This document shows, piece after piece, positions 1 through 12,397 of a stretch of 12,397 nt of DNA. Within the stretch, counting starts at the first letter, position 1. Every line of letters starts with the position of its first letter. Below the pieces are notes generated by a model, which was given only the letters and a program-made list of their open reading frames with translations, did no database searches and had not been told where the DNA came from. Both the position numbers and the translations under genes were made by a program. The stretch is from a virus (taxonomy: Duplodnaviria > Heunggongvirae > Uroviricota > Caudoviricetes), in the IMG/VR virus record IMGVR_UViG_2619619132_000012. One strand, given 5' to 3'.

Positions 1-1293
<1,293 letters not shown>

Positions 1294-1409
1294 TACCCAA
1301 TTTTTCTGAATCTAAAAAGCGCCTGCGGGCGCTTTAAGTAGAGGTTTAATCATTTGAAAATAAATGGATTTTATTTTTAAGTGTCCATATAACGTCCATC
1401 TTTGAATGC

Positions 1410-1450
1410 AAAAAGCCCACAGCTTCTATGCTGTGGGCTTTGTTTTTTGG
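1410..1450. terminator. rho-independent terminator downstream of serS, probably bidirectional
   Basis: Stem gcccacagc (1415-1423), loop ttctat, stem gctgtgggc (1430-1438), then tttgttttttgg; A-run upstream makes it usable from either strand. Confidence 0.6.
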
Positions 1451-1472
1451 TGTCCTCATGAGTGAGGGAACC

Positions 1473-1506
1473 AAAAAGAAAACCCGCAGTTTTTACGCTG
1501 CGGGCT
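1473..1506 (-). terminator. rho-independent terminator for the minus-strand hok transcript
   Basis: On the minus strand: stem cccgcag, loop cgtaaaaa, stem ctgcggg, followed by ttttctttttgg; lies about 95 nt downstream of the hok stop. Confidence 0.5.
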
Positions 1507-1598
1507 TGTTGTTCACGTCAACTGGAAATAGGGTGCCTTTTCGACCTTTACCCTGGCAACCGATTGACGGGGAAGTTGCCTTCCCCGTCGCGGTTTCC

Positions 1599-1739
1599 TT
1601 ACTGCTTACACTGTAAGAACGCCGCAAACTCCGCTCCCCAGAAACTCATCCGTATTTCACACAGCGAACCGTGCAGCATCCAGATGATGAGGATTGCCGT
1701 CACGCAGAATGTGATGGCCGTAAGCGATTTTTGCGACAT
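1599..1739 (-). CDS. Hok-family type I toxin (small membrane peptide), 46 aa
   Basis: Hand-translated, absent from the ORF track (too short): MSQKSLTAITFCVTAILIIWMLHGSLCEIRMSFWGAEFAAFLQCKQ. Hydrophobic N-terminal helix plus the SLCEIR motif and AAF block as remembered for plasmid R1 Hok (…[22 protein letters not shown]…). AGGAG sits 8 nt upstream of the ATG. Confidence 0.75.
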   Translation of the reverse strand: MSQKSLTAITFCVTAILIIWMLHGSLCEIRMSFWGAEFAAFLQCKQ

Positions 1740-1842
1740 AGCGCTTGCTCCTTTTTCGGGGAGGCGCTAACCTATCACTTGCTGAGGGTAGATGGTTAGG
1801 GCCTCGGGTTAACGTTAAAGTTGACTCGGGGCCTTTCCACAT
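1657..1842 (-). CDS. mok-like overlapping reading frame (translational coupler for hok)
   Basis: 61-aa ORF starting 103 nt upstream of hok in a different frame and ending inside hok, the arrangement known for mok/hok. No sequence homology asserted. Confidence 0.4.
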   Translation of the reverse strand: MWKGPESTLTLTRGPNHLPSASDRLAPPRKRSKRYVAKIAYGHHILRDGNPHHLDAARFAV

Positions 1843-1930
1843 CTGGCCTTCGGGTATTCCCTCCGACCATCAGCCGAAAGGCACCCGCGCGTAATCTATC
1901 GCTTTTTTGTTACTCCGGCAATTCTGCCTG

Positions 1931-2191
1931 TTAATTCTGAGGTAAAGGCAAACTCATCTGATTGTTTCCCCTGTGTGAAGCTGGCAGCTCATGCCACGGG
2001 ATACCTTCTGAAGAGTGAACGCCGGAGGCGTGTTTTGATGTGAATTTATGGAAAGCTTCCAGTGTTGAGAAGCATACGCCGCATTCCAGATTGTTACACT
2101 GGTAATACTTTTGCCGCACGGTGTTTGAATCATTTTCCGGACGACTGGTGCGGATACGGGCAGATGCGCCACAAAGCGGACAACGGAACAT
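1931..2191 (-). CDS. ogr: Ogr/Delta-family zinc-finger late transcription activator
   Basis: 86-aa ORF MFRCPLCGASARIRTSR…YQCNNLECGVCF…; the CxxC…CxxxxC motif and N-terminus resemble P2 Ogr as remembered. GGGAGG SD 6 nt upstream. Sits immediately downstream of D as in P2. Confidence 0.8.
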   Translation of the reverse strand: MFRCPLCGASARIRTSRPENDSNTVRQKYYQCNNLECGVCFSTLEAFHKFTSKHASGVHSSEGIPWHELPASHRGNNQMSLPLPQN

Positions 2192-2231
2192 AGCGACCTC
2201 CCTTAACGTGGTGCTGCCTATTCTAAGTTGC

Positions 2232-3341
2232 TCACTCTGTTTCCGCTATCCATTCCGGGATTTTTGCCTCAAGCTCAAGCTGCGTGGTAAAACCGCTGTT
2301 ATCAATGGTGTGCTCGGCTTTTGCAATGATCCAGTCCTGATTATCAATCTCGCTTTTAAATCCTGTTACCGTGCCATGCATTTCGGGGTAGAGTTCTGCA
2401 CGTCCACGCGCCAGCGTGATGGAGAATGATGCGGCTCCGCGTTGTAGTTGCTGCCACTTTGCCGCCGCTGCGCGTCTTGCTGCCTGCTCGTTCTGATAAG
2501 TCTTGCGTAACACAAACACATTGCCTTCCGCGCCTTCCATATAATCACCTTCACGGCTGCTGCTTTTCTCCTTTTTGGGTTTTGGCGGTTTACGGCGTTT
2601 CACGCTGACTTTTTTCTTTTTCCCGTAATTAAGATCAAGCCAGTAAGCGCGTACCCCCGTATACGCTTCGCGGTCAGCAATGCGGAACTGATGGCGATCG
2701 CCGCTGCTGCGTGTGATGGCAAACGATGGCAACGGCTGGCCCTGTGCGTTCACGCCACCGCCGGGCATGATGAATAACAGATTACCGCTTTTTACCGTGG
2801 TGATTGCGCCCAGCATTTCCGCCATGCGCGTAAGGAAGGACATATCGCTTTCTTCGGTCTGGTCGGCGTGGTCGATTTCGATATCCATCAGCATTTCGCT
2901 GATTTGCGGTTTCAGACCGTACCGATGAGCGATGGCGGATACCACGCGCTCAACGGTCACATCATGCCAGGACACCTCACGTTTAACGTTAAATTCATCC
3001 CGAAAATCTGCGCTTCTGGCTGAAACCGTCAGCCTGTCCGGCGGTCCTTCGTGAGCGATTTCATCAACAATGTAAGTGCCTTTTTCTGTCAGCGGTTCGC
3101 CTTTCCAGCCAATGAGAACCGTCAGACGCGCGCCCCGTGGCGGTAGCTGCAACTGACCATCCGCATCATCCAGCGTGATGGTGAGCTGGTCCGCTTCAAA
3201 TCCCCGGTTGTCGGTCAGTGACAGACTCATCAGGCGCTCTGCCACGCCGGACAGCGTTTCCCCCTCCGCGAGAATATCAAAATCCGGCATTTTCACGGGG
3301 TCTGTGCTCTGACTGAGCAATTGCATGGTGGTGTTGGTCAT
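2232..3341 (-). CDS. D: P2 gpD-like tail protein (late control gene D)
   Basis: ORF track 2232..3362; start moved to the ATG at 3339-3341 (MTNTTMQLL…), preceded by GGGAGGGAAAG. Translation resembles P2 gpD throughout (LSLTDNRGFEADQL, SARSADFR, lysine-rich KKKKVSVKRRKPPKPKK linker, SGFK…QDWLIAK C-terminal block). Confidence 0.9.
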   Translation of the reverse strand: MTNTTMQLLSQSTDPVKMPDFDILAEGETLSGVAERLMSLSLTDNRGFEADQLTITLDDADGQLQLPPRGARLTVLIGWKGEPLTEKGTYIVDEIAHEGPPDRLTVSARSADFRDEFNVKREVSWHDVTVERVVSAIAHRYGLKPQISEMLMDIEIDHADQTEESDMSFLTRMAEMLGAITTVKSGNLLFIMPGGGVNAQGQPLPSFAITRSSGDRHQFRIADREAYTGVRAYWLDLNYGKKKKVSVKRRKPPKPKKEKSSSREGDYMEGAEGNVFVLRKTYQNEQAARRAAAAKWQQLQRGAASFSITLARGRAELYPEMHGTVTGFKSEIDNQDWIIAKAEHTIDNSGFTTQLELEAKIPEWIAETE

Positions 3342-3497
3342 CTTTCCCTCCCTGTGCGGCATGGTCGCATGTGCGTGCGGAGTGGGTTACTGCTTTTTGT
3401 TGTCGCCGTGGCGGGAGAACGGCGCAGGGGTGAGATTACGCGCGTGGTGGGTGATGATTGTTGCCGAATCATTTAACGGATACAAGGGGCTGAAGCT

Positions 3498-4682
3498 ATG
3501 AGTGAAACTCGTTTTCATGGTGCCCGTGTTACGGAAAGTACCGACCTGGTAACAGCGATTAATGATGTTGATTCCAGCGTTATCGGTATCGTGGCAACGG
3601 CGGATGATGCGGACGCGAAGCTGTTCCCGCTGAACAAGCCCACACTGCTGACCCGCGTCAATGACGTGCTGGGAAAATGCGGGACAACGGGGACGCTTTA
3701 TCGTGCGCTTAAGGCCATCGCAGACCAGGTGAGCACAAAGGTGATCGTCGTTCGCGTGGCTGAACACAAAGAAGAAAACGGAAAGACGCAGGATCAACTG
3801 GTTATCGGTGGTTCTGAATCTGACGGCAGCTATACGGGGATGTATGCGCTGCTTGTTGCAGAGCAGGATGAAAGCATCGGATACCGTCCGCGTATTCTGG
3901 CCGCGCCGGAGCTGGACACGGAGGCGGTGACAAAATCCCTGTGCGTGATTGCGGGTAAACTGCGCGCGTTTGTGTATGCCACATGTCATGGTTGTAACAC
4001 GATGGCTGAGGCGATTACCTACCGCCAGAAATTCAACGAACGTGAGGTGATGCTCTTATGGCCTGACTTCATCGCCTACAACCCGAAAAGTGGCAAAAAC
4101 GAAACGTTCCCCGCGCCTGCTTATGCGTGCGGCCTTCGTGCGTACATTGACCATGAGCAGGGCTGGCACAAATCGCTGTCCAACGTTCCGGTTAAAAATG
4201 TGCTGGGGATGTCGAGGCATGTGTTCTGGTCGTTACAGGCCGAAGACAGTGATGCCAACAGCCTCAACAACAAAGAAATCACGACCATTATTCGTCGTAA
4301 CGGGTTCCGCTTCTGGGGCAACCGCACACCGGAAACGAACGCCTACATCTTTGAGGTGTATACCCGAACCGCACAGGTGCTGGCTGATTCAATTGCGGAA
4401 GCGCAGTTTGAAACCATCGACAGTCCACTGACACCTGCGAACGTGAAGGATGTTATCAGCGCCATCAGAGCAAAACTGGATTCGCTGGTTACTGTCGGGA
4501 AACTGATTGGTGCGGAGTGCTGGTATGACGTGGTGGATAACAGCACCACGGGTTTACGTCAGGGGCGTGTGCGTATTCGCTACAAATATACGCCCGTTCC
4601 TCCGCTGGAAGACATGGAGCTTTACCAGTCGTTTACTGATGAATTCTTTGGTCCCGCATTTGCGGTGCTGGGAGGTGCCTGA
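3498..4682 (+). CDS. FI: contractile tail sheath protein (P2 FI-like)
   Basis: 394-aa ORF; translation shares blocks remembered from P2 FI (FPLNKP, LRAFVYA, YRQ.F..RE, WPDF, GWHKSLSNV, IRRNGFRFWGNRT, YTRTAQV, YTPVPPLE). Confidence 0.93.
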   Translation: MSETRFHGARVTESTDLVTAINDVDSSVIGIVATADDADAKLFPLNKPTLLTRVNDVLGKCGTTGTLYRALKAIADQVSTKVIVVRVAEHKEENGKTQDQLVIGGSESDGSYTGMYALLVAEQDESIGYRPRILAAPELDTEAVTKSLCVIAGKLRAFVYATCHGCNTMAEAITYRQKFNEREVMLLWPDFIAYNPKSGKNETFPAPAYACGLRAYIDHEQGWHKSLSNVPVKNVLGMSRHVFWSLQAEDSDANSLNNKEITTIIRRNGFRFWGNRTPETNAYIFEVYTRTAQVLADSIAEAQFETIDSPLTPANVKDVISAIRAKLDSLVTVGKLIGAECWYDVVDNSTTGLRQGRVRIRYKYTPVPPLEDMELYQSFTDEFFGPAFAVLGGA

Positions 4683-5194
4683 TGGCTGTACCAAAACATC
4701 TTCGCTTTTTTACGCTGTTTGTGGATGGTGAAAACGAAGTGGGTAAGGTGACGTCCGTCACTCTGCCTAAGCTGACGCGCAAAACCGACAGCTACCGGGG
4801 TGGTGGCATGATGGGTGCGGTAAGTATTGATCTCGGTCTGGACGACTCCGCGCTTGATGCGAGCTTTGTCATGGGGGGCGCAGTTCGTGAGCTGTTCCTT
4901 AAGTATGGCGGCACGATTGACGGCACGCTGCTGCGTTTTGCGGGTGAATACTACACCGATGCAGAAAGCGACCTGTATGAAGTCGAAATGCGCGGACGTG
5001 TGACGGAAATTGATATGGGGGAAGCCAAACAGGGCGAAGCCACATCACACACTTACGCCATTAAAAACACCTACTACAAGCTGAGTGTTAACGATCGCCC
5101 GTTGTGGGAGATTGACCTGCTGAACTTCATTTACCGGAAGGACGGCAAGGACATTGTGCCCGATCGCATCCGTTCCGCGCTCGGGCTTGGCTGA
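4682..5194 (+). CDS. FII: tail tube protein (P2 FII-like)
   Basis: 170-aa ORF; start overlaps the FI stop (TGATG) with a GGAGG SD; contains the VTSVTLPKLTRKTDSYRGGGM block typical of FII. Confidence 0.9.
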   Translation: MAVPKHLRFFTLFVDGENEVGKVTSVTLPKLTRKTDSYRGGGMMGAVSIDLGLDDSALDASFVMGGAVRELFLKYGGTIDGTLLRFAGEYYTDAESDLYEVEMRGRVTEIDMGEAKQGEATSHTYAIKNTYYKLSVNDRPLWEIDLLNFIYRKDGKDIVPDRIRSALGLG

Positions 5195-5248
5195 TAAGTA
5201 ATATGCAGGCGGCGCAGTGCGTCGCCTCTGACTGAAAGGAGTTTCCTG

Positions 5249-5614
5249 ATGAAAGAGACGAAAAACATCGATACCGAAAACACGGTAGTTACTGACACTG
5301 TGAAAGAAACCAGTGAGCGTGGCGTAAAACTTACCCAACCAATTGAGCGAGGCGGCGAAAAAATCACGTATGTGGAGATCACCGGGGCTATTGAGCAGGC
5401 TGGATCTCTGCGAGATTTGTCGCTGTCTGATGTGCTGAATCTGAAAGCGGAATCCATGTTTACGCTGCTGTCACGCGTGACATCACCGCGACTGGATGAA
5501 GTGACGATCAAAAAAATGGCATCCCGTGACTTTATTCAGTTATGTGCGGTTGCCGTAAATTTTTTGAGCGGTGCGGACTCTGGCGGGAAGAACGAACAGG
5601 CGACGGAAGCCTGA
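5249..5614 (+). CDS. E: tail assembly chaperone (P2 gpE-like), zero-frame product
   Basis: 121-aa ORF between tube and tape-measure genes, AAGGAG SD; positional equivalent of P2 E / lambda G. Confidence 0.75.
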   Translation: MKETKNIDTENTVVTDTVKETSERGVKLTQPIERGGEKITYVEITGAIEQAGSLRDLSLSDVLNLKAESMFTLLSRVTSPRLDEVTIKKMASRDFIQLCAVAVNFLSGADSGGKNEQATEA

Positions 5615-5778
5615 TCACGGTTGTGTGCTTTGAGCACATAGAAGACTTTGTGGCAGATATTGCCGCCATTTTTAACTGGTCGCCCGCCGAAATCTTCATG
5701 ATGACGCCCGGCGAAGTGGTTAGCTGGCGCGAGCGGGCGGCACTTCGCAGCGGGAATGCAGACAATGAAGACTCTTGA
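5249..5778 (+). CDS. gpE+E' fusion chaperone made by programmed -1 ribosomal frameshift
   Basis: The -1 frame relative to E is open from 5542 to 5778 and overlaps the start of T. Slippery heptamer T_TTT_TTG at 5560-5566 lies in frame X_XXY_YYZ relative to E. Confidence 0.6.
5560..5566 (+). other. slippery heptanucleotide TTTTTTG for the E/E' -1 frameshift
   Basis: aaT TTT TTG in the E reading frame; the -1 frame continues FFERCGLW… to the stop at 5776-5778. Confidence 0.6.
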
Positions 5779-8569
5779 TATCCGGGTCGCTTTCAGCGCC
5801 GTTGACAGGCTGACCCGGCCTGCCGAAAACGCCCGCCGCCTGATGGGGCAGTTTGGTGACTCCATCCAGCGAACGCAGGGGGCGATCAAAAATCTCGAGC
5901 GTCAGGCGCGTTCATTTGAGCGCGCCCGCGACGCTGTCAGTAAAGCGGATGCGGGTATCGTGAAAGCACGACGCCAGCTTAACGCCCTTAATCAGTTACA
6001 ACGCACGGGTACAGTGCTCAGCGAAAAACAACAAAAGCTGATGCAGCAGTTAAGCACCCGGCTTGAACGCCTGAATGAATCGCGCACACGGGAAATTCAG
6101 AAAATGCGGGAACTTGGCGGAGAGCTGAAACGCCACGGCATTTCCCTGACAGGCAGCGATAACACAATCCAGCAGGCCATCAGACGCACTGAACAGTACA
6201 ACAACCAGCTTGAACGCGAACGGCAGGCGCTTGCGCGTGTAACGCGGGCGCGTGAGCGGTATTCGCGCGCGCAGGAAACCGCGGGAAAACTGAAAACAGG
6301 TGGTGCGCTGGCAATTGGTGCTGCAGCGGCTGGCGGCTATGCTGCCGGGCGTTTTTTGCAGCCTGCGATCGGGTTCGGCAAAGAGATGTCCCGCGTTCAG
6401 GCACTGACGCGAATCGACAAAAACAGCCCGCAGTTTAAGGCGCTGCGTGAGCAGGCGTTAAAACTTGGTTCTGAAACACAGTTTACTGCGAGTGATGCCG
6501 CCAGTGGGCAGAGCTTTCTGGCAATGGCTGGTTTTACTCCGCAGGCCATTCAGGCCGCATTGCCCGGTGTTCTTAATATGGCGCTGGCAGGTGGCGTCGA
6601 ACTCGGCGAGACGGCGGATATAGGCTCCAATATCCTCACACAGTTCAACCTGACAGCCGATCAAATGGACCGGGTTGGCGATACGCTGACAGCGGCATTC
6701 ACCCGGACCAATACTGATTTACGCGCGCTGGGCGAAACCATGAAGTATACCGGTCCGGTTGCCGCAAAACTTGGTATCAGTCTTGAAGAAGCGGCAGCCA
6801 TGGCCGGGATGCTTGCCAATAATGGTCTTCGTGGAAGCGATGCTGGTACGGCCATGCGCGCAAGTCTGTCCCGCCTTGCATCACCGCCAAAAGCTGCGGC
6901 TGATGCACTGAAAGAGCTGGGGGTGTCAGTTGCTGACGCCAGAGGCAAAATGCGCCCGATGGAGGATGTGCTGCTTGATCTCTATAAGGCGACACAAAAA
7001 TACGGACAGGTGGACCAGGTCTCCTTCTTCAAGGACATCGCCGGAGAAGAGGCGTTCGTTGGTTTACAGACGCTTGTTGCGGCGGCTGGTTCAGGAGAGC
7101 TGCAAAAACTGACCAGAGAATTGCAGGGGGCAAGGGGAGAGGCCGATCGCGTTGCAAAAGTAATGGCCGATAATCTTGATGGGGACCTGAAAAATCTCGA
7201 CAGCGCATGGGAAGGTCTTCGTATTCGCATCAGTGATCTGGTTGACGGTCCGCTGCGTTCTGTCACGCAGTGGCTCACGCGGGTGCTTGAAAAAATCACC
7301 TCGCTGGCGCAGGCCCATCCGGTACTGACGCGCCAGCTACTGATAGCAGGCGGTGCGTTGCTGGCAATGACTGCAACGATTGGCTCGTTGTCGCTGGTTA
7401 TTGGGGTGCTTTACGGAAAGCTGGCCACCCTGCGTCTTGGTTTTGACATTCTTACCCGGTCAATGAATGTCGTCCGGGTGTTGCCTGCGCTGTGGGGAAT
7501 GCTGACGGGTTCTGTTTCTTTGCTGGGAGGCGCTATCGGGGCGCTGTTCAGTCCGGTTGGATTGATTGCTGCTGCGTTTGTGGCTGCGGCGGTTCTCATC
7601 TGGAAATACTGGGAACCCATTAAGGCGTTTTATGCCGGGGTGTTCAACGGGATTATGGAAAGGCTGACCCCGTTGCGCGAAACCTTTGAACGGTTTGGTC
7701 CTGTTTTTGACGCAATCGGGAGCGGGATCAGCCAGGTGTTTAACTGGTTTAAATCGCTGCTGTCACCGATGGAGTCCAGCAAGGAAACGCTGGATAAATG
7801 TACCAGTGCTGGCGAGATATTCGGTAGCGTTCTTGGCGGTGCGTTACAGCTTGTTCTGACACCTGCAAAAATGCTGCTGGATACGCTGGCGTGGATACTT
7901 GAAAAACTTGGCGTCCTTCCGGATGAAGCGGAAAGGGCGCGCAAGAAAATCGAAGACGCACAGCGTGCGGCCATTCTTCAGGACAAGGTTGCCTTGCTTC
8001 AGGGGGACCTGGCGAAAATCAATCCGCCGAAGCCTGTGGAAAATGGCAATGGCACCGGAGGTGATAACCCCAAAGACAATAAACCGCTCACAGACAGCAA
8101 TACCGGTACGCTGCGCAGACTCAGCAAAATTGCTGATAACACAGGTAAGCTGGTTGATGAGACGAAAAAACGCATTGGCCCCGGCGATATTGTCTTTAAG
8201 AACCTGCCCCGCGCACTTGCTGTTCGTGGGGAGTGGCAGGAGCGGAAGATTGCGCAGGTCAGTAAGCCCCCCGCAATTAATATCACACCCGTGGTCCCGG
8301 CTCCGCTGCCTCCGGCGCTGGTCCCTGTTGTTGCGGCCAGCTCCCGCCCGGTGGCGGAGGCCATACGATCTCCAGTGGCATCAGTTCCTGTAACTTCCCG
8401 TAACCGGGAGCCTGTTGCCTCCGGATTTGGTGGTGAAATTCATGTTCATCTGCATAACGTTGTTACGCAGAATCCCCGCGAACTGGCGAAACTGGTCGGT
8501 GAAATGGTCAGGGCAGAAATGGAACGGCGCGCCCGTGCCGGGCGTGGCAGTTTTTACGATAAAGATTGA
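5756..8569 (+). CDS. T: tail tape measure protein (P2 gpT-like)
   Basis: 937-aa ORF; coiled-coil N-terminal part, central hydrophobic/glycine-rich block, position between chaperone and U. The start could instead be the ATG at 5765. Confidence 0.88.
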   Translation: MQTMKTLDIRVAFSAVDRLTRPAENARRLMGQFGDSIQRTQGAIKNLERQARSFERARDAVSKADAGIVKARRQLNALNQLQRTGTVLSEKQQKLMQQLSTRLERLNESRTREIQKMRELGGELKRHGISLTGSDNTIQQAIRRTEQYNNQLERERQALARVTRARERYSRAQETAGKLKTGGALAIGAAAAGGYAAGRFLQPAIGFGKEMSRVQALTRIDKNSPQFKALREQALKLGSETQFTASDAASGQSFLAMAGFTPQAIQAALPGVLNMALAGGVELGETADIGSNILTQFNLTADQMDRVGDTLTAAFTRTNTDLRALGETMKYTGPVAAKLGISLEEAAAMAGMLANNGLRGSDAGTAMRASLSRLASPPKAAADALKELGVSVADARGKMRPMEDVLLDLYKATQKYGQVDQVSFFKDIAGEEAFVGLQTLVAAAGSGELQKLTRELQGARGEADRVAKVMADNLDGDLKNLDSAWEGLRIRISDLVDGPLRSVTQWLTRVLEKITSLAQAHPVLTRQLLIAGGALLAMTATIGSLSLVIGVLYGKLATLRLGFDILTRSMNVVRVLPALWGMLTGSVSLLGGAIGALFSPVGLIAAAFVAAAVLIWKYWEPIKAFYAGVFNGIMERLTPLRETFERFGPVFDAIGSGISQVFNWFKSLLSPMESSKETLDKCTSAGEIFGSVLGGALQLVLTPAKMLLDTLAWILEKLGVLPDEAERARKKIEDAQRAAILQDKVALLQGDLAKINPPKPVENGNGTGGDNPKDNKPLTDSNTGTLRRLSKIADNTGKLVDETKKRIGPGDIVFKNLPRALAVRGEWQERKIAQVSKPPAINITPVVPAPLPPALVPVVAASSRPVAEAIRSPVASVPVTSRNREPVASGFGGEIHVHLHNVVTQNPRELAKLVGEMVRAEMERRARAGRGSFYDKD

Positions 8570-8575
8570 GGAGTC

Positions 8576-9070
8576 ATGGCCATGATGATGATCTACGGCA
8601 TGTTTGTTTTTGAGCTGCGCACGTTGCCGCATCAGCAGTTACAGCAAAACAAAAGCTGGCGGCATGTGAAAAATGAGCGCGTAAACCGCTCAGCAAGCTG
8701 GCAGTATATCGGTGCAGGTGATGATCGCATCGTGCTTTCTGGCGTGCTTTATCCTGAAATTACAGGTGGCGAAGTGTCGCTTTCGTTGCTGACCACGCAG
8801 GCATATACAGGACGCCCCTGGCCTCTGATTGATGGTGTCGGGCAGATTTACGGCATGTATGTACTGACTGAAACGAATACGACCCGTTCCGAGTTTGATC
8901 GCTACGGTAAGGCGAAAAAGATAGAATTTTCACTGACTCTTGAACGCTGTGATGAGGATTTGCGGGAGCGCCTGCAATCCTCATCGTTCAGTGATATGCT
9001 GTCCGGCTTCAAAGATAAGGTCACATCATCCCTCAACAGCGCGGCCAGCTCCGTTAAAGGGCTGTTTTGA
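8576..9070 (+). CDS. U: tail protein gpU-like
   Basis: 164-aa ORF MAMMMIYGMFVFELRTLPHQQL…SWRH…; resembles the P2 gpU family N-terminus; GAGGAG SD upstream. Confidence 0.82.
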   Translation: MAMMMIYGMFVFELRTLPHQQLQQNKSWRHVKNERVNRSASWQYIGAGDDRIVLSGVLYPEITGGEVSLSLLTTQAYTGRPWPLIDGVGQIYGMYVLTETNTTRSEFDRYGKAKKIEFSLTLERCDEDLRERLQSSSFSDMLSGFKDKVTSSLNSAASSVKGLF

Positions 9071-9077
9071 TTAACGC

Positions 9078-9106
9078 AAAACCGCTAATGGTCAGATTAG
9101 CGGTTT
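9078..9106. terminator. bidirectional hairpin between convergent U and invertase
   Basis: aaaaccgctaat-ggtcag-attagcggtttt; the stem overlaps the invertase stop codon (9097-9099), with A/T runs on both sides. Confidence 0.5.
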
Positions 9107-9696
9107 TCATTTTCCTGAGTCTGCCTGGTTGTTTCTTCAGCCTGTATATCGCCTACAGGGTGATAACGATAAATCGTCGATATGCCGATGTCGTAAATGA
9201 TCGCCAGTTGTTTCCTGTCATGACCGTTTTTAATCAGCCTCGCTATTTGCTCGTGTTGTTCTTTTGTCAACTTCGGGCGACGTCCGCCAATGCGTCCTTG
9301 TGCGCGTGCTGCTGCCAGCCCGGCCAGTGTACGTTCTACAATTAATTCACGTTCCATTTCGGCTAAAGCCCCCATGACGTGAAAAAAGAAACGCCCCATG
9401 GGTGTTGACGTGTCAATGCTGTCCGTCAGACTACGGAAATTAACACCTTTTTCCCGCAATTCCTCAATAAGCGTGATCAGGTGTTTCATACTTCTGCCCA
9501 GTCTGTCCAGCTTCCAGACAACCAGCGTATCTCCTTCTGATAGCGTTCTGAGCAGTTTTTTCAATCCCGGTCTGGTTGATTTCGTTCCGCTGATTTTATC
9601 TTCAAAAATCAGTTCACATCCTGCGCAGTTCAGTGCATTGCGTTGTAAATCCGTGTTCTGGTCGTTTGTTGACACACGAATATAGCCAATTTGCAT
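9097..9696 (-). CDS. serine DNA invertase (Hin/Gin/Pin/Cin family), copy 1
   Basis: Start set at MQIGYIRVSTNDQNTDLQRNAL… (AGAGGA SD), not the longer 9825 ORF. Strong resemblance to Pin/Gin as remembered: catalytic-Ser motif GYIRVST, VVWKLDRLGRSMKHLI, SLTDSIDTS.PMGRFFFHVMGALAEMERELI.ERT, C-terminal HTH. Confidence 0.93.
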   Translation of the reverse strand: MQIGYIRVSTNDQNTDLQRNALNCAGCELIFEDKISGTKSTRPGLKKLLRTLSEGDTLVVWKLDRLGRSMKHLITLIEELREKGVNFRSLTDSIDTSTPMGRFFFHVMGALAEMERELIVERTLAGLAAARAQGRIGGRRPKLTKEQHEQIARLIKNGHDRKQLAIIYDIGISTIYRYHPVGDIQAEETTRQTQENENR

Positions 9697-9769
9697 AAAA
9701 AACATCCTCTTTGTTTCGTGAAAAATACAGAGTTGGTATAGGTAGGGATAAAAACGAAAACGTTGGTTT
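9259..9769. repeat. left arm of a perfect inverted repeat (pairs with 11887..12397)
   Basis: Reverse complement matches 11887..12397 at every stretch compared by eye (position sum 21656); first mismatch is 9770 vs 11886. Left limit is set only by the window end on the partner arm. Confidence 0.85.
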
Positions 9770-10280
9770 AGGAGAAGGCTCGGCGCTACCCGTTGGTGTG
9801 CCTGTTCCGTGGCCCACCGCCACACCGCCAGCAGGCTGGTTAAAGTGCGACGGGCGCGCCTTTACAAAAGAACAATATCCTGTTCTGGCCAGAGTCTACT
9901 CGACCCTCCGTCTTCCCGATTTGCGCGGTGAGTTTATCCGTGGATGGGACGACGGGCGCAAAGTTGATACAGGACGTAAGTTGCTGTCCGCACAAGGGGC
10001 AACGCTGTTAAGAACAGCAATGCTGGATTATTATAACCAGGACACTACGGGAACCTCGGGGATAGTCGGCATGGGATTCAACAATGAAGATTCCATTACA
10101 GACCTTCGTGAGGGCAGCTTTAAAATGCCGGACGGGACAACATTCAGCAATCCTGTCATGGCAATGTCAGACAATGGTATGCAGGCTACTATTCTGACCT
10201 CTATCAGAAGCGGGTATGCGAAGGGTATCACTGTCAGACCCCGTAGCATTGCACTTAATTACATTGTGAGGGCAGTTTAA
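9711..10280 (+). CDS. tail-fibre C-terminal cassette A (promoterless segment)
   Basis: Open frame from 9699, no credible start or RBS; conserved junction block GLGEGSALPVGVPVPWPTATPPAGWLKCDG…LPDLRGEFIRGWDDGRK then a variable C-terminus ending NYIVRAV. Confidence 0.8.
   Translation: MFREKYRVGIGRDKNENVGLGEGSALPVGVPVPWPTATPPAGWLKCDGRAFTKEQYPVLARVYSTLRLPDLRGEFIRGWDDGRKVDTGRKLLSAQGATLLRTAMLDYYNQDTTGTSGIVGMGFNNEDSITDLREGSFKMPDGTTFSNPVMAMSDNGMQATILTSIRSGYAKGITVRPRSIALNYIVRAV
9751..9776. other. putative invertase crossover site A (hix/gix-like, 12-2-12)
   Basis: aaaacgaaaacg-TT-ggtttaggagaa; resembles hix (ttcttgaaaacc-AA-ggtttttgataa) in the AAAAC…GGTTT core around a central dinucleotide. Inverted relative to sites B and C. 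Confidence 0.5.
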
Positions 10281-10894
10281 TGAGTAACACTGCAGTTCTG
10301 GATGAAAACGGTATCGCCACTGTAGCGGGCGATATCACTGTATATCACTATGACGAGGAAACCCGGGAATACACCTCATCCTCTGTGGAGTATCTCGCCC
10401 TTGGGGTGGGTACTCCGGCACATTCGTGCGCCGATGCACCGCCGGAGGCAATTTCGGGTTACGTGGTTTGCCGGACTGCCACGCTGAACGGGTGGGAGCA
10501 TGTGCCTGATCACCGCGGCGAGACGGTATACAGCACGGAGAACGGTAACCCTGTTCTGATTACCCAACCGGGTGATTACCCGGCGGACACCACCACAAAA
10601 CAGCCAGCCACGCCATGGGATACCTGGAACGGTGAGGCGTGGGTAACCGATACTGAACGGCAGCGAGCCGCAGAACTGGAGGTTGCCAGACAGCAACGCC
10701 AGCAACGGGTGAAACAGGCGATGGCGTCAGTCGATCTTATCAACCTCAAACTGCGTGCTGGTCGCAGTCTGACACCAGAAGAAACGGCAAAACTGAACGC
10801 CGTGCTGGATTATATCGACGAGCTGAACGCACTGGATATCAGCACGGCACCTGAAATCAGCTGGCCGGAAGCGCCACTGGCACTTGCCAGTTGA
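10280..10894 (+). CDS. tail-fibre assembly chaperone (Tfa / Mu U / P2 G-like)
   Basis: 204-aa ORF; start overlaps the cassette A stop (TAATG); motifs HVPDHRGETVY, WNGEAWVTDTE, DISTAPEISWPEAP match the tail-fibre assembly family. Confidence 0.88.
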   Translation: MSNTAVLDENGIATVAGDITVYHYDEETREYTSSSVEYLALGVGTPAHSCADAPPEAISGYVVCRTATLNGWEHVPDHRGETVYSTENGNPVLITQPGDYPADTTTKQPATPWDTWNGEAWVTDTERQRAAELEVARQQRQQRVKQAMASVDLINLKLRAGRSLTPEETAKLNAVLDYIDELNALDISTAPEISWPEAPLALAS

Positions 10895-10900
10895 ACGGTA

Positions 10901-11384
10901 TCACGCCGCCCTCACGATATAGTTAAACGCGATATTGCGGGGGCGGGTTATGTTAAAGAATGCTCCGTTTAATTCGGCTTTTGCGCGACTGTTTGTTCCA
11001 CCCAGAATTACGTACCACAAATAATCGCTACGGTAATTCCCCGCAAACACCTTATCGCCGCCATAGTCAATATTATTTCCGTTACTCATGTACGAGATAT
11101 CAAGCGAAGAATCGTTATCGTCATGACCGCCGACCAGTGTACCTTTCTGCCATGAAAGCAACTTACGCCCCTCGTCAATCTTGCGCCCGTCGTCCCATCC
11201 ACGGATAAACTCACCGCGCAAATCGGGAAGACGGAGGGTCGGGTAGACTCTGGCCAGAACAGGATATTGTTCTTTGGTGAACGTAGCTCCGTTGCACTGT
11301 AACCAGCCTGCTGGCGGTGTGGCAGTGGGCCACGGAACAGGTACACCAACGGGCAGCGCCGAGCCTTCCCCCAAACCAACGTTT
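10901..11384 (-). CDS. tail-fibre C-terminal cassette B (silent, no start)
   Basis: Frame opens immediately after the cassette C stop codon (TAA at 11385-11387) in the same frame: KNVGLGEGSALPVGV…; same conserved block, different variable tail ending NYIVRAA. Confidence 0.75.
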
Positions 11385-11391
11385 TTATGCG
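11366..11391. other. putative invertase crossover site B
   Basis: ttcccccaaacc-AA-cgtttttatgcg; inner half-site and central dinucleotide match sites A and C, outer half differs. Confidence 0.45.
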
Positions 11392-11945
11392 GCCCTTACG
11401 ATGTAATTAAACGCAACATTGCGGGGGCGCATTGATATCCATGCCCCGGTAAAATTATCCTCCGCTGTCCTTTGAGTACCCATTATGGAGTTATCTGCTG
11501 ATGCAGGAACATAATCGCTATTATTTCCTGCTTTAGGATTAGCTGGGTTTCCAACGGTTATAACAGAATCAGCAGTAGCAAAAGCGATACCTACTTTGAC
11601 ATTAGTATTCAGATCGTAACCGTAATAATCCTGCAAAGCTGTACGAATAAATGTTGCAGCCTGACCACTTAGCAATGAACGCCTCGTATCAACTTTGCGC
11701 CCGTCGTCCCATTCACGGATAAACTCACCGCGTAAATCAGGAAGACGGAGGGTCGGGTAGGCTCTGGCCAGAACAGGATATTGTTCTTTTGTAAAGGCGC
11801 GCCCGTCGCACTTTAACCAGCCTGCTGGCGGTGTGGCGGTGGGCCATGGAACCGGTACACCAACAGGCAATGCAGAGCCTTCCCCCAAACCAACGTTTTC
11901 GTTTTTATCCCTACCTATACCAACTCTGTATTTTTCACGAAACAA
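11385..11945 (-). CDS. tail-fibre C-terminal cassette C (promoterless segment)
   Basis: 186-aa frame with the same N-terminal junction block as A (protein identical through …KEQYPVLAR) and a distinct variable C-terminus ending NYIVRAA. Confidence 0.8.
   Translation of the reverse strand: MFREKYRVGIGRDKNENVGLGEGSALPVGVPVPWPTATPPAGWLKCDGRAFTKEQYPVLARAYPTLRLPDLRGEFIREWDDGRKVDTRRSLLSGQAATFIRTALQDYYGYDLNTNVKVGIAFATADSVITVGNPANPKAGNNSDYVPASADNSIMGTQRTAEDNFTGAWISMRPRNVAFNYIVRAA
11880..11905. other. putative invertase crossover site C
   Basis: ttcccccaaacc-AA-cgttttcgtttt; reverse complement of site A apart from the outer fibre-side half. Confidence 0.5.
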
Positions 11946-12397
11946 AGAGGATGTTTTTTATGCAAATTGGCTATATTCGTGTGTCAACAAACGACCAGAA
12001 CACGGATTTACAACGCAATGCACTGAACTGCGCAGGATGTGAACTGATTTTTGAAGATAAAATCAGCGGAACGAAATCAACCAGACCGGGATTGAAAAAA
12101 CTGCTCAGAACGCTATCAGAAGGAGATACGCTGGTTGTCTGGAAGCTGGACAGACTGGGCAGAAGTATGAAACACCTGATCACGCTTATTGAGGAATTGC
12201 GGGAAAAAGGTGTTAATTTCCGTAGTCTGACGGACAGCATTGACACGTCAACACCCATGGGGCGTTTCTTTTTTCACGTCATGGGGGCTTTAGCCGAAAT
12301 GGAACGTGAATTAATTGTAGAACGTACACTGGCCGGGCTGGCAGCAGCACGCGCACAAGGACGCATTGGCGGACGTCGCCCGAAGTTGACAAAAGAA
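11887..12397. repeat. right arm of the perfect inverted repeat (pairs with 9259..9769)
   Basis: See left arm; identity runs to the last base of the window, so the true extent is unknown. Confidence 0.85.
11960..12397 (+). CDS. serine DNA invertase, copy 2 (5' partial, runs off window)
   Basis: ATG at 11960 with the same SD; the 146 codons present are nucleotide-identical to the reverse complement of copy 1 (MQIGYIRVSTNDQ…RRPKLTKE). Confidence 0.9.
   Translation, partial: MQIGYIRVSTNDQNTDLQRNALNCAGCELIFEDKISGTKSTRPGLKKLLRTLSEGDTLVVWKLDRLGRSMKHLITLIEELREKGVNFRSLTDSIDTSTPMGRFFFHVMGALAEMERELIVERTLAGLAAARAQGRIGGRRPKLTKE

Follow-up and report, generated by a model that had tools for sequence, protein, structure and literature searches.

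An invertible tail-fibre region of Min/Pin type, probably from a P2-like prophage next to serS, with invertase sequence at both ends

The window analysed here, a stretch of 12,397 nucleotides, most probably contains the invertible tail-fibre region of a P2-like (Peduoviridae) prophage located next to serS. We regard it as a multiple-inversion system of the Min/Pin type in which the gpH flank is replaced by a mirror-image invertase flank, and assign to this reading a probability of roughly 85%.

Three tail-collar fibre C-terminal cassettes lie within positions 9751-11905 of the window. Cassette A (9765-10280, + strand), an alternative fibre C-terminus without its own start, is read forward, while cassettes B (10901-11377, - strand) and C (11385-11891, - strand) are in reverse orientation and in tandem. 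An invariant block, NVGLGEGSALPVGVPVPWPTATPPAGW...PDLRGEFIR.WDDGRK, is common to the three cassettes and corresponds to the Pfam Collar domain, with E-values from 1e-15 to 3e-16. At the DNA level, the conserved blocks span 215-230 bp and are 87-95% identical. They are followed by divergent middles of about 85-100 amino acids, and all three cassettes share a 14-residue C-terminal motif, RPR(N/S)(I/V)A(F/L)NYIVRA(A/V), that was absent from the initial annotation. The latter had described three alternative fibre C-termini with a shared junction block and differing variable parts, A being forward and followed by Tfa, B and C being reverse and in tandem. Both the elements and their layout are found at these positions, with Pfam Collar in every cassette. 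On the other hand, this layout had been considered unusual, which does not hold: three cassettes with B and C in tandem and a single Tfa are normal for this prophage lineage, including the prophage of EPEC E2348/69. The frame of cassette B opens at a TAA, 8 nt before the stop codon of cassette C. Hence, cassette C has its 3' end inside crossover site B.

Each cassette begins at a 26-bp site with an AA/TT core. Written as cassette half, core and outer half, site A (9751-9776, - strand, core TT at 9763-9764) reads TTCTCCTAAACC AA CGTTTTCGTTTT. The internal site B (11366-11391, + strand) reads TTCCCCCAAACC AA CGTTTTTATGCG, its outer half being the 3' end of cassette C, and site C (11880-11905, + strand) reads TTCCCCCAAACC AA CGTTTTCGTTTT. 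The 20-nt core pattern has three matches, against 0.00 expected from 200 shuffles. The proposal of a 26-bp site with the same TT/AA core at each junction is borne out, and so is that of sites B and C being direct repeats, as their orientation indicates; site A is inverted relative to both. An alignment of the junctions to hix/gix-family sites, which had also been suggested, gave a match to published pix and mix sites. Site A matches the Din/mix sites of PMC3241671 (Table 3), and site B is identical at 24 of 26 positions to the p15B mix sites TTCCCCTAAACC AA CGTTTTTATGCC, as listed in the same table. The cassette halves of the three sites match TTC---AAAC- -A -GTTT---GAA (12 + 2 + 12), the Din-family consensus; the outer halves keep GTTT, not GAA, as do published mix sites (PMC3241671). 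Judged from their letters, the sites are of the Min/Pin type and near-identical to p15B mix sites. The outer half of site C is the invertase-side one, where intact prophages have the gpH-side half GGTAATTGAGGA.

A complete DNA invertase of 199 amino acids, starting with MQIGYIRVSTNDQ, is encoded at 9097-9696 on the - strand (Pfam Resolvase, 3e-51; HTH_7, 1e-12). It displays the two features of small serine recombinases, a resolvase catalytic domain with the serine in a Y-x-R-V-S-T motif and a C-terminal HTH. The search against PDB structures matched Gin 4m6f with an E-value of 8e-91, the two Gin structures 4m6f and 3uj3 both scoring at about 1e-90. The protein is 82% identical to PinE, 74% to Cin and 72.5% to Gin, and is classed, on its sequence, as a Gin/Pin-family serine invertase. 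Its DNA is 100% identical to that of three complete prophages (L003, L004 and L005). An invertase-side flank of 54 nt (9697-9750) separates the ATG of the gene from the crossover site; the 60-nt stretch 9691-9750 that includes it is 100% conserved in L001, L002, L003 and the EPEC locus L011. Between the convergent gpU and invertase genes, a hairpin with a 12-bp stem and T runs (9078-9107) looks like an intrinsic terminator, as suggested by a consensus scan. An Rfam scan of the whole window returned no family at its gathering score. In addition, alignment to the enhancer annotated at nt 19-90 of P1 cin points to 9607-9678 (- strand) as a candidate recombinational (Fis) enhancer equivalent. This stretch is identical to cin at 56 of 72 positions and to pinE at 62 of 72, as compared to 69-73% for the rest of the gene. 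It also encodes the conserved catalytic N-terminus, and a putative enhancer role is here inseparable from coding constraint. Din-family systems depend on Fis and on a cis-acting recombinational enhancer with two Fis sites, and the same may hold here.

The gene for the tail-fibre assembly protein Tfa (204 amino acids; 10280-10894, + strand; Pfam Caudo_TAP, 3.5e-28) follows cassette A, whose stop codon overlaps the tfa ATG (TAATG). It is the sole tfa in the segment, one Caudo_TAP gene for three cassettes, in agreement with the earlier description of a single Tfa, unlike the paired Sv-U / U'-Sv' modules of Mu. Its counterparts in homologous loci carry the annotation "tail fiber assembly protein", and a PDB sequence search with Tfa gave no meaningful match. 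The sigma-70 promoter scan found one match, against 4.3 expected, and gives no support for a separate tfa promoter or an invertase promoter. The FI-U late operon converges on the segment in this lineage, with tfa downstream of a late operon in either orientation, and we speculate that this position might allow one Tfa to serve all cassettes. The chaperone supply for the B fibre, with tfa always pointing the other way, is a question relevant to phage engineering with P2-type fibres.

In the mechanism that we propose, the Gin/Pin-family serine invertase would bind the 26-bp sites located at the 5' edges of the promoterless cassettes for fibre C-termini, cut the 2-bp AA/TT core and exchange strands between inverted sites. 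The intact prophage has one fixed site beside the invertase, one site ending the gpH constant part and one internal site. Two overlapping inversions, of 2129 and 1615 bp here, would then generate four arrangements in which A, B or C may be joined in frame to gpH (...DVLNYL/GLGEGSALPVG...), the single Tfa being downstream of A only. Such cassette switching would be expected to change the host range.

Neither the constant 5' part of the fibre gene (gpH) nor a gpH-side crossover site was found in the window. Beyond site C stands a mirror copy (11906-12397, + strand; Pfam Resolvase). It repeats the invertase-side flank at 11906-11959, then 438 nt from the start of the invertase gene at 11960-12397, where the end of the window truncates it. 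Where the initial annotation had counted one invertase, the window thus holds a complete copy (9097-9696, - strand) and this partial second one. The mirror arms, 9259-9769 and 12397-11887, show 100% reverse-complement identity over 511 nt. Identity over 511 bases is compatible with two prophages, the invertase being 99-100% conserved in the lineage. The arms first differ at 9770, a position 6 nt beyond the core TT and within the cassette half of site A. Similarity to gpH-bearing prophages ends at 11893, in the core AA of site C. Because the gpH constant part is absent and the invertase flank is present at both ends, no fibre can be made from the segment as assembled. Accordingly, this window does not allow the claim of three or more host-range states provided by one invertase, which holds only for intact relatives (L018, L003 and L004).

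The likeliest cause of the mirror copy, and one that we favour with some reserve, is that two coexisting inversion isomers were merged into a chimera during assembly. The large inversion would have been present in its two orientations in the sequenced culture, with the L/A junction of one isomer joined by the assembler to the C/L junction of the other at a contig end. This reading draws on the 100% identity of the mirror arms, with their first mismatch in site A, and on that of positions 1180-9769 to the MS10860 prophage, which is single and intact. The right end of the window is probably such a contig end, since the IMG/VR proviruses of this lineage have their left end cut exactly at the serS ATG and the window stops inside the mirror copy. 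Draft contigs of relatives also break in this region. An exact-protein search with the tape-measure protein retrieved three contigs, none identical to the window, and two exact-pattern scans of IMG/VR retrieved only relatives of it. The window end was also considered as the natural boundary of a real inverted repeat, and this was ruled out: none of the invertase alleles of relatives diverges near mirror position 9258.

A real mirror invertase is possible, but we consider it rather doubtful. Two prophages with the same invertase would have undergone a crossover between a gpH-side site and an invertase-side site, inverting the chromosome between them and leaving invertase-cassettes-invertase here and gpH-cassettes-gpH at the other junction. 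This arrangement exists elsewhere. The complete strain 4/0 genome has inv1-cassettes-inv2 on the serS side, followed by aroA in inverted order, and the reciprocal gpH>segment<gpH junction, with two gpH-side sites inverted, is found 45 kb away; L025 is a second real invertase-cassettes-invertase case. Moreover, the window breakpoint falls at the core AA, and the invertase alleles of the lineage are 99-100% identical, so that two copies could match perfectly. However, in strain 4/0 and L025 the DNA identity between the two invertases reaches only about 74-79%, as compared to 100% in the window, and the window arrangement is covered at 80% or more in only 1 of 5426 complete genomes. The second copy also stops precisely at the window end, where no related allele diverges, and a short-read contig that had crossed one identical repeat of at least 500 nt would be unlikely to end midway through the other.

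The two origins would have different consequences. A real palindrome, doubtful as it is, would mean a decapitated fibre gene and a hybrid switch shared by two prophages after a large chromosomal inversion. Tail-fibre invertases would then have repeatedly driven chromosome-scale inversions in E. coli, with strain 4/0 and L025 as further instances. In strain 4/0, the same sites have recombined between different prophages, an occasional event that ties the host-range switch to chromosome rearrangement. On the chimera reading, which we favour, the mirror copy would itself record the coexistence of two isomers. Contigs ending in or near such segments can have mirror-image ends that resemble gene duplications or palindromes, and reads are needed before any biological interpretation.

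The same cassettes occur in other permutations in complete E. coli genomes, with breakpoints falling on the core dinucleotide. Per locus, relatives contain 3 to 4 crossover sites. Isomer L018 is arranged as L/A tfa B'/C'/H (99.92% identity), L004 as H-A tfa B' C'/inv and L003 (MS10860) as inv/C/A tfa B'-H, the cassettes of the last two being at least 99% identical. In every isomer, the cassette half-site (TTCTCCT or TTCCCCC) moves with its cassette, and the outer half (CGTTTTCGTTTT, GGTAATTGAGGA or CGTTTTTATGCG) remains with its flank; exchange between the two halves is seen in the natural isomers L003, L004, L018 and L011. Each of the cassettes is found fused to full-length gpH in other genomes. 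Among 5426 complete genomes, the fusion to A occurs in up to 327 (in frame in L004), that to B in up to 103 (including MS10860, L003) and that to C in up to 75 (including L018 and MS8345). These counts are upper bounds, some of the places covered at 80% or more being two-piece joins, for example gpH with another cassette, then A in tandem. Ordinary homologous recombination between the 215-230 bp blocks, in place of site-specific inversion, might be invoked for these arrangements, as the blocks are similar and long enough for RecA. However, the exchanges all map to the outermost edge of homology, bounded on one side by the half-site polymorphism, at 6 nt from the core, and on the other by the base that immediately follows AA, and none lies inside the conserved block. 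In addition, an intact Gin-family invertase adjoins the segment, and the EPEC homologue switches within single colonies (PMC4272514). With all breakpoints at the core, recombination within the blocks was rejected as highly improbable.

We give just as little weight to the idea that the locus is the dead remnant of a decayed prophage, without inversion or expression. In its favour, gpH is missing from the window, as are genes for head, lysis, replication and integrase. However, the invertase, sites, Tfa and three cassette frames are intact, positions 1180-9769 show 100% identity to the MS10860 prophage, whose set of P2-type genes is complete, and the other phage genes are missing because the window ends at 12397.

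Comparison with known systems places the locus among the phage tail-fibre switches. The initial annotation had called it a shufflon. Its core statement, a tail-fibre switch driven by a serine invertase at multiple sites of the hix/gix family, with one Tfa, is retained, but the term is acceptable only as an analogy. The R64 shufflon relies on the tyrosine recombinase Rci acting on 19-bp sfx repeats in pilV, whereas the window encodes only a serine invertase, with no recombinase of the Rci type, and its target is a phage fibre. Mu Gin and P1 Cin belong to the same recombinase family (72-74% identity) and share the 26-bp site design and the position of the invertase beside the segment; in P1, the enhancer is contained in the 5' portion of the invertase coding sequence. 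Mu and P1 differ from the window in having two sites, paired Sv-U / U'-Sv' modules and, for gix, a GA core instead of AA/TT; the window combines three cassettes and Collar-type tips with one Tfa. Another relative is the Pin / P-segment of the cryptic prophage e14 of E. coli K-12. PinE is 82% identical to the invertase of the window, the invertase adjoins the segment and is transcribed away from it, and pixR, TTCTCCCAAACC AA CGTTTATGAAAA, is close to the sites described here. However, the e14 segment carries a pair of sites and a pair of cassettes, with a separate Tfa for each cassette (tfaP, tfaE).

A further relative is the Min multiple-inversion system of plasmid p15B, reportedly described by Sandmeier et al. 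in 1990. Our comparison with Min rests on the site table of PMC3241671 (Table 3). Both systems have more than two crossover sites with an AA core, and the half-sites are the same: TTCCCCCAAACC, the internal CGTTTTTATGCC and the constant-side GGTAATCAAGAA. The invertible segments of Min overlap because its internal sites extend over the 3' end of the cassette before them; here, site B lies over the stop codon of C. Min differs by its six sites and by its location on a P1-related plasmid instead of a P2-like prophage. Its constant 5' fibre part lies outside the segment, which has no equivalent in the window, where gpH and the gpH-side site are both lacking. In intact relatives (L002-L005, L011 and L018), the gpH constant part is outside the segment, with alternative 3' parts fused to it.

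The closest system is that of the P2-like prophage of EPEC O127:H6 E2348/69 (NC_011601.1, 1891695-1893703). It has the synteny of the window lineage, namely gpT, gpU, invertase, three Collar cassettes with one Tfa, gpH, gpI and gpJ. Its invertase DNA is 99.2% identical, its invertase-side flank is 100% identical, and the same three kinds of sites are present. In contrast, the cassette alleles differ, with blocks about 70-74% identical and unrelated variable parts, and the EPEC locus has gpH where the window has the second invertase copy. Four coexisting variants with three C-termini were demonstrated in EPEC by whole-genome sequencing and PCR (Goldberg et al. 2014, PMC4272514), the switch operating by one large and one small overlapping inversion (PMC4272514). 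Overall, the biological stake of the window is small: the switch belongs to the textbook mechanisms by which phages vary their host range, and the design, a three-cassette, one-Tfa switch, is already known from EPEC, where its inversion has been established experimentally.

Cassettes A (9765-10280, +), B (10901-11377, -) and C (11385-11891, -) are indeed three alternative tail-fibre C-termini, as the initial annotation had proposed. They have in common an invariant N-terminal block carrying a Pfam Collar domain, whereas their middles diverge. The invariant block also matches the T4 gp37 collar domain (2xgf) and a solved short tail fibre. At the C-terminal end, all three cassettes finish with RPRNIAFNYIVRAA or a close variant, 14 residues being common to them. 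The claim of a single tail-fibre assembly protein also stands: the sole Caudo_TAP gene, tfa (10280-10894, +), follows A, and its start overlaps the stop of A.

The DNA invertase (9097-9696, -; 199 aa, Resolvase and HTH_7 domains) matches solved Gin structures at an E value of about 1e-90, with identities of 82% (PinE of e14), 74% (Cin) and 72.5% (Gin). At 9711-9764 and 11892-11945, the invertase-side flank opens a TTG frame, MFREKYRVGIGRDKNEN, into whichever cassette adjoins the invertase. RefSeq labels such flank-cassette frames of 504-519 nt “phage tail protein”; if made, they would be headless fragments.

A 26-bp site is found at the start of each cassette, written here as cassette half, core and outer half: TTCTCCTAAACC AA CGTTTTCGTTTT for site A, TTCCCCCAAACC AA CGTTTTTATGCG for site B and TTCCCCCAAACC AA CGTTTTCGTTTT for site C. 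These junction sites had been described correctly, with an AA core in all three, B and C as direct repeats and A inverted relative to both. A 20-nt core common to the sites occurs 3 times versus 0.00 expected, and the outer half of site B coincides with the final codons of cassette C and its stop. When aligned, the junctions agree with the sites tabulated for the Din family (PMC3241671 Table 3), among them pixR (TTCTCCCAAACC AA CGTTTATGAAAA), the internal mix sites of p15B (TTCCCCTAAACC AA CGTTTTTATGCC) and mixQ''R' (TTCCCCCAAACC AA GGTAATCAAGAA), the p15B counterpart of the gpH-side site in these prophages. Given these matches and the relatives of the invertase, the system is a Min/Pin-type multiple inversion system. 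The proposed term “shufflon” holds only by analogy, because there is no Rci-type tyrosine recombinase.

In complete prophages of the lineage, gpU is followed by the invertase, the cassettes with tfa, a full-length gpH fibre gene oriented toward the invertase, and gpI, gpJ and further genes. Intact loci each have a single site on the invertase side (outer half CGTTTTCGTTTT), a single one on the gpH side (outer half GGTAATTGAGGA or GGTAATCAAGAA) and one or two internal sites. Cassettes A, B and C, at ≥99% identity, are found in differing permutations among prophages. With L for the invertase-side flank, slashes for crossover sites and arrowheads for reading direction, these are L/A> tfa> <B/<C/gpH in the related locus L018 (99.92% over window 8128-11893), L/C>/B> <tfa <A/gpH in FDAARGOS_1077 and L/C>/A> tfa> <B/gpH in MS10860. 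In each permutation, the cassette half-site (TTCTCCT for A, TTCCCCC for B and C) moves with its cassette and the outer half-site remains with its flank, so that exchange maps to a few bases around the core AA. The gpH-cassette fusion is in frame (...DVLNYL/GLGEGSALPVG). Synthetic gpH-A, gpH-B and gpH-C queries were covered at ≥80% in up to 327, 103 and 75 of 5426 complete genomes, respectively, which are upper bounds because some matches are two-piece joins.

Cassette number varies among relatives, perhaps because direct-repeat sites on sister chromosomes occasionally recombine. The E. coli MS8345 locus (L005, 3992-6660) has four cassettes, one copy of C being fused to gpH and a second one lying next to the invertase; another relative (L007) has two cassettes, and two more (L019 and L024) have four sites.

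From the site positions, three sites should give four arrangements, with tfa pointing the same way as gpH when A is fused to gpH and in one of the two arrangements that fuse C to it, and always opposite to gpH in the gpH-B state. Tfa proteins reportedly bind the distal end of the fibre. Together with the 14 shared C-terminal residues, this would be compatible with recognition of all the tips by one Tfa. A promoter scan of the window found no promoter-like site for tfa. That the converging FI-U operon might transcribe it by read-through in the gpH-B state is only speculative, since a terminator-like hairpin (9078-9107) lies between gpU and the invertase.

The window begins at the ATG of serS (1-1293), followed on the minus strand by a Hok/Gef-type gene (1599-1739), an Ogr-type zinc-finger gene (1931-2191) and gpD (2232-3362). 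The P2-type tail genes are on the plus strand: FI sheath (3498-4682), FII tube (4682-5194), E (5249-5614), tape measure (5756-8569) and gpU (8576-9070), directly followed by the invertase and cassette segment. Within 2232-9070, the FI-FII-E-T-U operon is oriented against gpD and ogr, and it faces the gpH operon, with the invertible segment between the two, an order common to all relatives fetched; in canonical P2, FI through D are co-linear. The Hok/Gef-family toxin gene, located between serS and the ogr-like gene, encodes 46 aa and is so annotated in homologous loci; no Sok-type RNA was found in the window at the Rfam gathering score. The stretch 1180-9769 shows 100% identity to a complete P2-like prophage that occupies this site in E. 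coli MS10860, whereas serS differs from its MS10860 counterpart by 24 substitutions, all within 102-1179. This suggests either that the host background of the same prophage differs or that a recombination boundary lies close to the serS 3' end. In addition, gpD is an intact 376-aa frame in the window; for MS10860, where this DNA is identical, RefSeq lists a gene of 801 nt and, on the opposite strand, a pseudogene of 93 nt, apparently an inconsistency of annotation.

Neither gpH nor a gpH-side site was found in the window. Past site C, the invertase-side flank and the initial 438 nt of the invertase gene appear instead in mirror image, extending to the last window base. The two arms of this inverted duplication (9259-9769 and 12397-11887), which also take in the outer half-site, show 100% identity over 511 nt and bracket the whole invertible segment, the second copy being cut by the window end. 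Their first mismatch is at 9770, just within the cassette half-site, and homology to gpH-bearing prophages stops at 11893, in the core AA. Both segment ends are thus invertase ends and, as assembled, none of the three cassettes is expressible as part of a fibre. This structural oddity, overlooked by the initial annotation, is more likely of technical than of biological origin.

We favor, with a probability of about 0.6, an assembly chimera of two coexisting inversion isomers. The left junction (L/A) would derive from an L018-type isomer, and the right junction (C/L, read backwards) from the fully inverted isomer, as in FDAARGOS_1077. In a culture with both isomers, as in EPEC colonies, an assembler could pass from cassette C into the flank where it had started, in reverse complement. 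The perfect identity of the arms, the identity of the window prophage to one single intact prophage and the breaks of relatives' draft contigs in the invertible region argue for such a chimera. So do related IMG/VR proviruses cut exactly at the serS ATG, which points to a gene-boundary cut at the left end of the window, the right end, inside a gene, probably being a contig end. A further point in favor is that, among related invertase alleles, no divergence was found near the mirror of the window end.

A real inversion between two prophages is less likely, although comparable structures exist. Strain 4/0, whose genome is complete, has inv1-cassettes-inv2 on the serS side, then aroA and serC in inverted order. 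The reciprocal junction is 45 kb further on and reads gpH> cassettes <gpH of a second myovirus prophage, its two gpH-side sites being inverted. A second, similar double-invertase locus is IMGVR_UViG_2654587728_000014. However, in each of these two loci the paired invertases share only about 74-79% DNA identity, and the window's arrangement was covered at ≥80% in only 1 of 5426 complete genomes. In E. coli 4/0 itself (NZ_CP023849.1), two different prophages have their invertible fibre segments at L001 12198-15591 and L009 30167-34072, with a roughly 45-kb chromosomal inversion (dmsABC...aroA) between these segments and like sites paired at each junction.

Coexisting isomers have been described in EPEC E2348/69, by paired-end sequencing and PCR of single colonies (Goldberg et al. 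2014, PMC4272514). There, one P2-like prophage carries three 215-bp homologous inverted repeats and undergoes large and small overlapping inversions; four coexisting variants give three alternative C-termini, in a system that the authors named a shufflon, and colonies hold both orientations at about 90:10. Overall, the initial annotation read a known system correctly and overstated its novelty. The EPEC locus has the gene order and the three site types of the window lineage, its invertase DNA is 99.2% identical to that of the window, and the 60 nt upstream of the site, including the 54-nt invertase flank, are 100% identical. A single Tfa and a tandem cassette pair are therefore nothing peculiar to the window but the norm for the lineage, and the sole difference noted from the EPEC locus concerns the cassette alleles.
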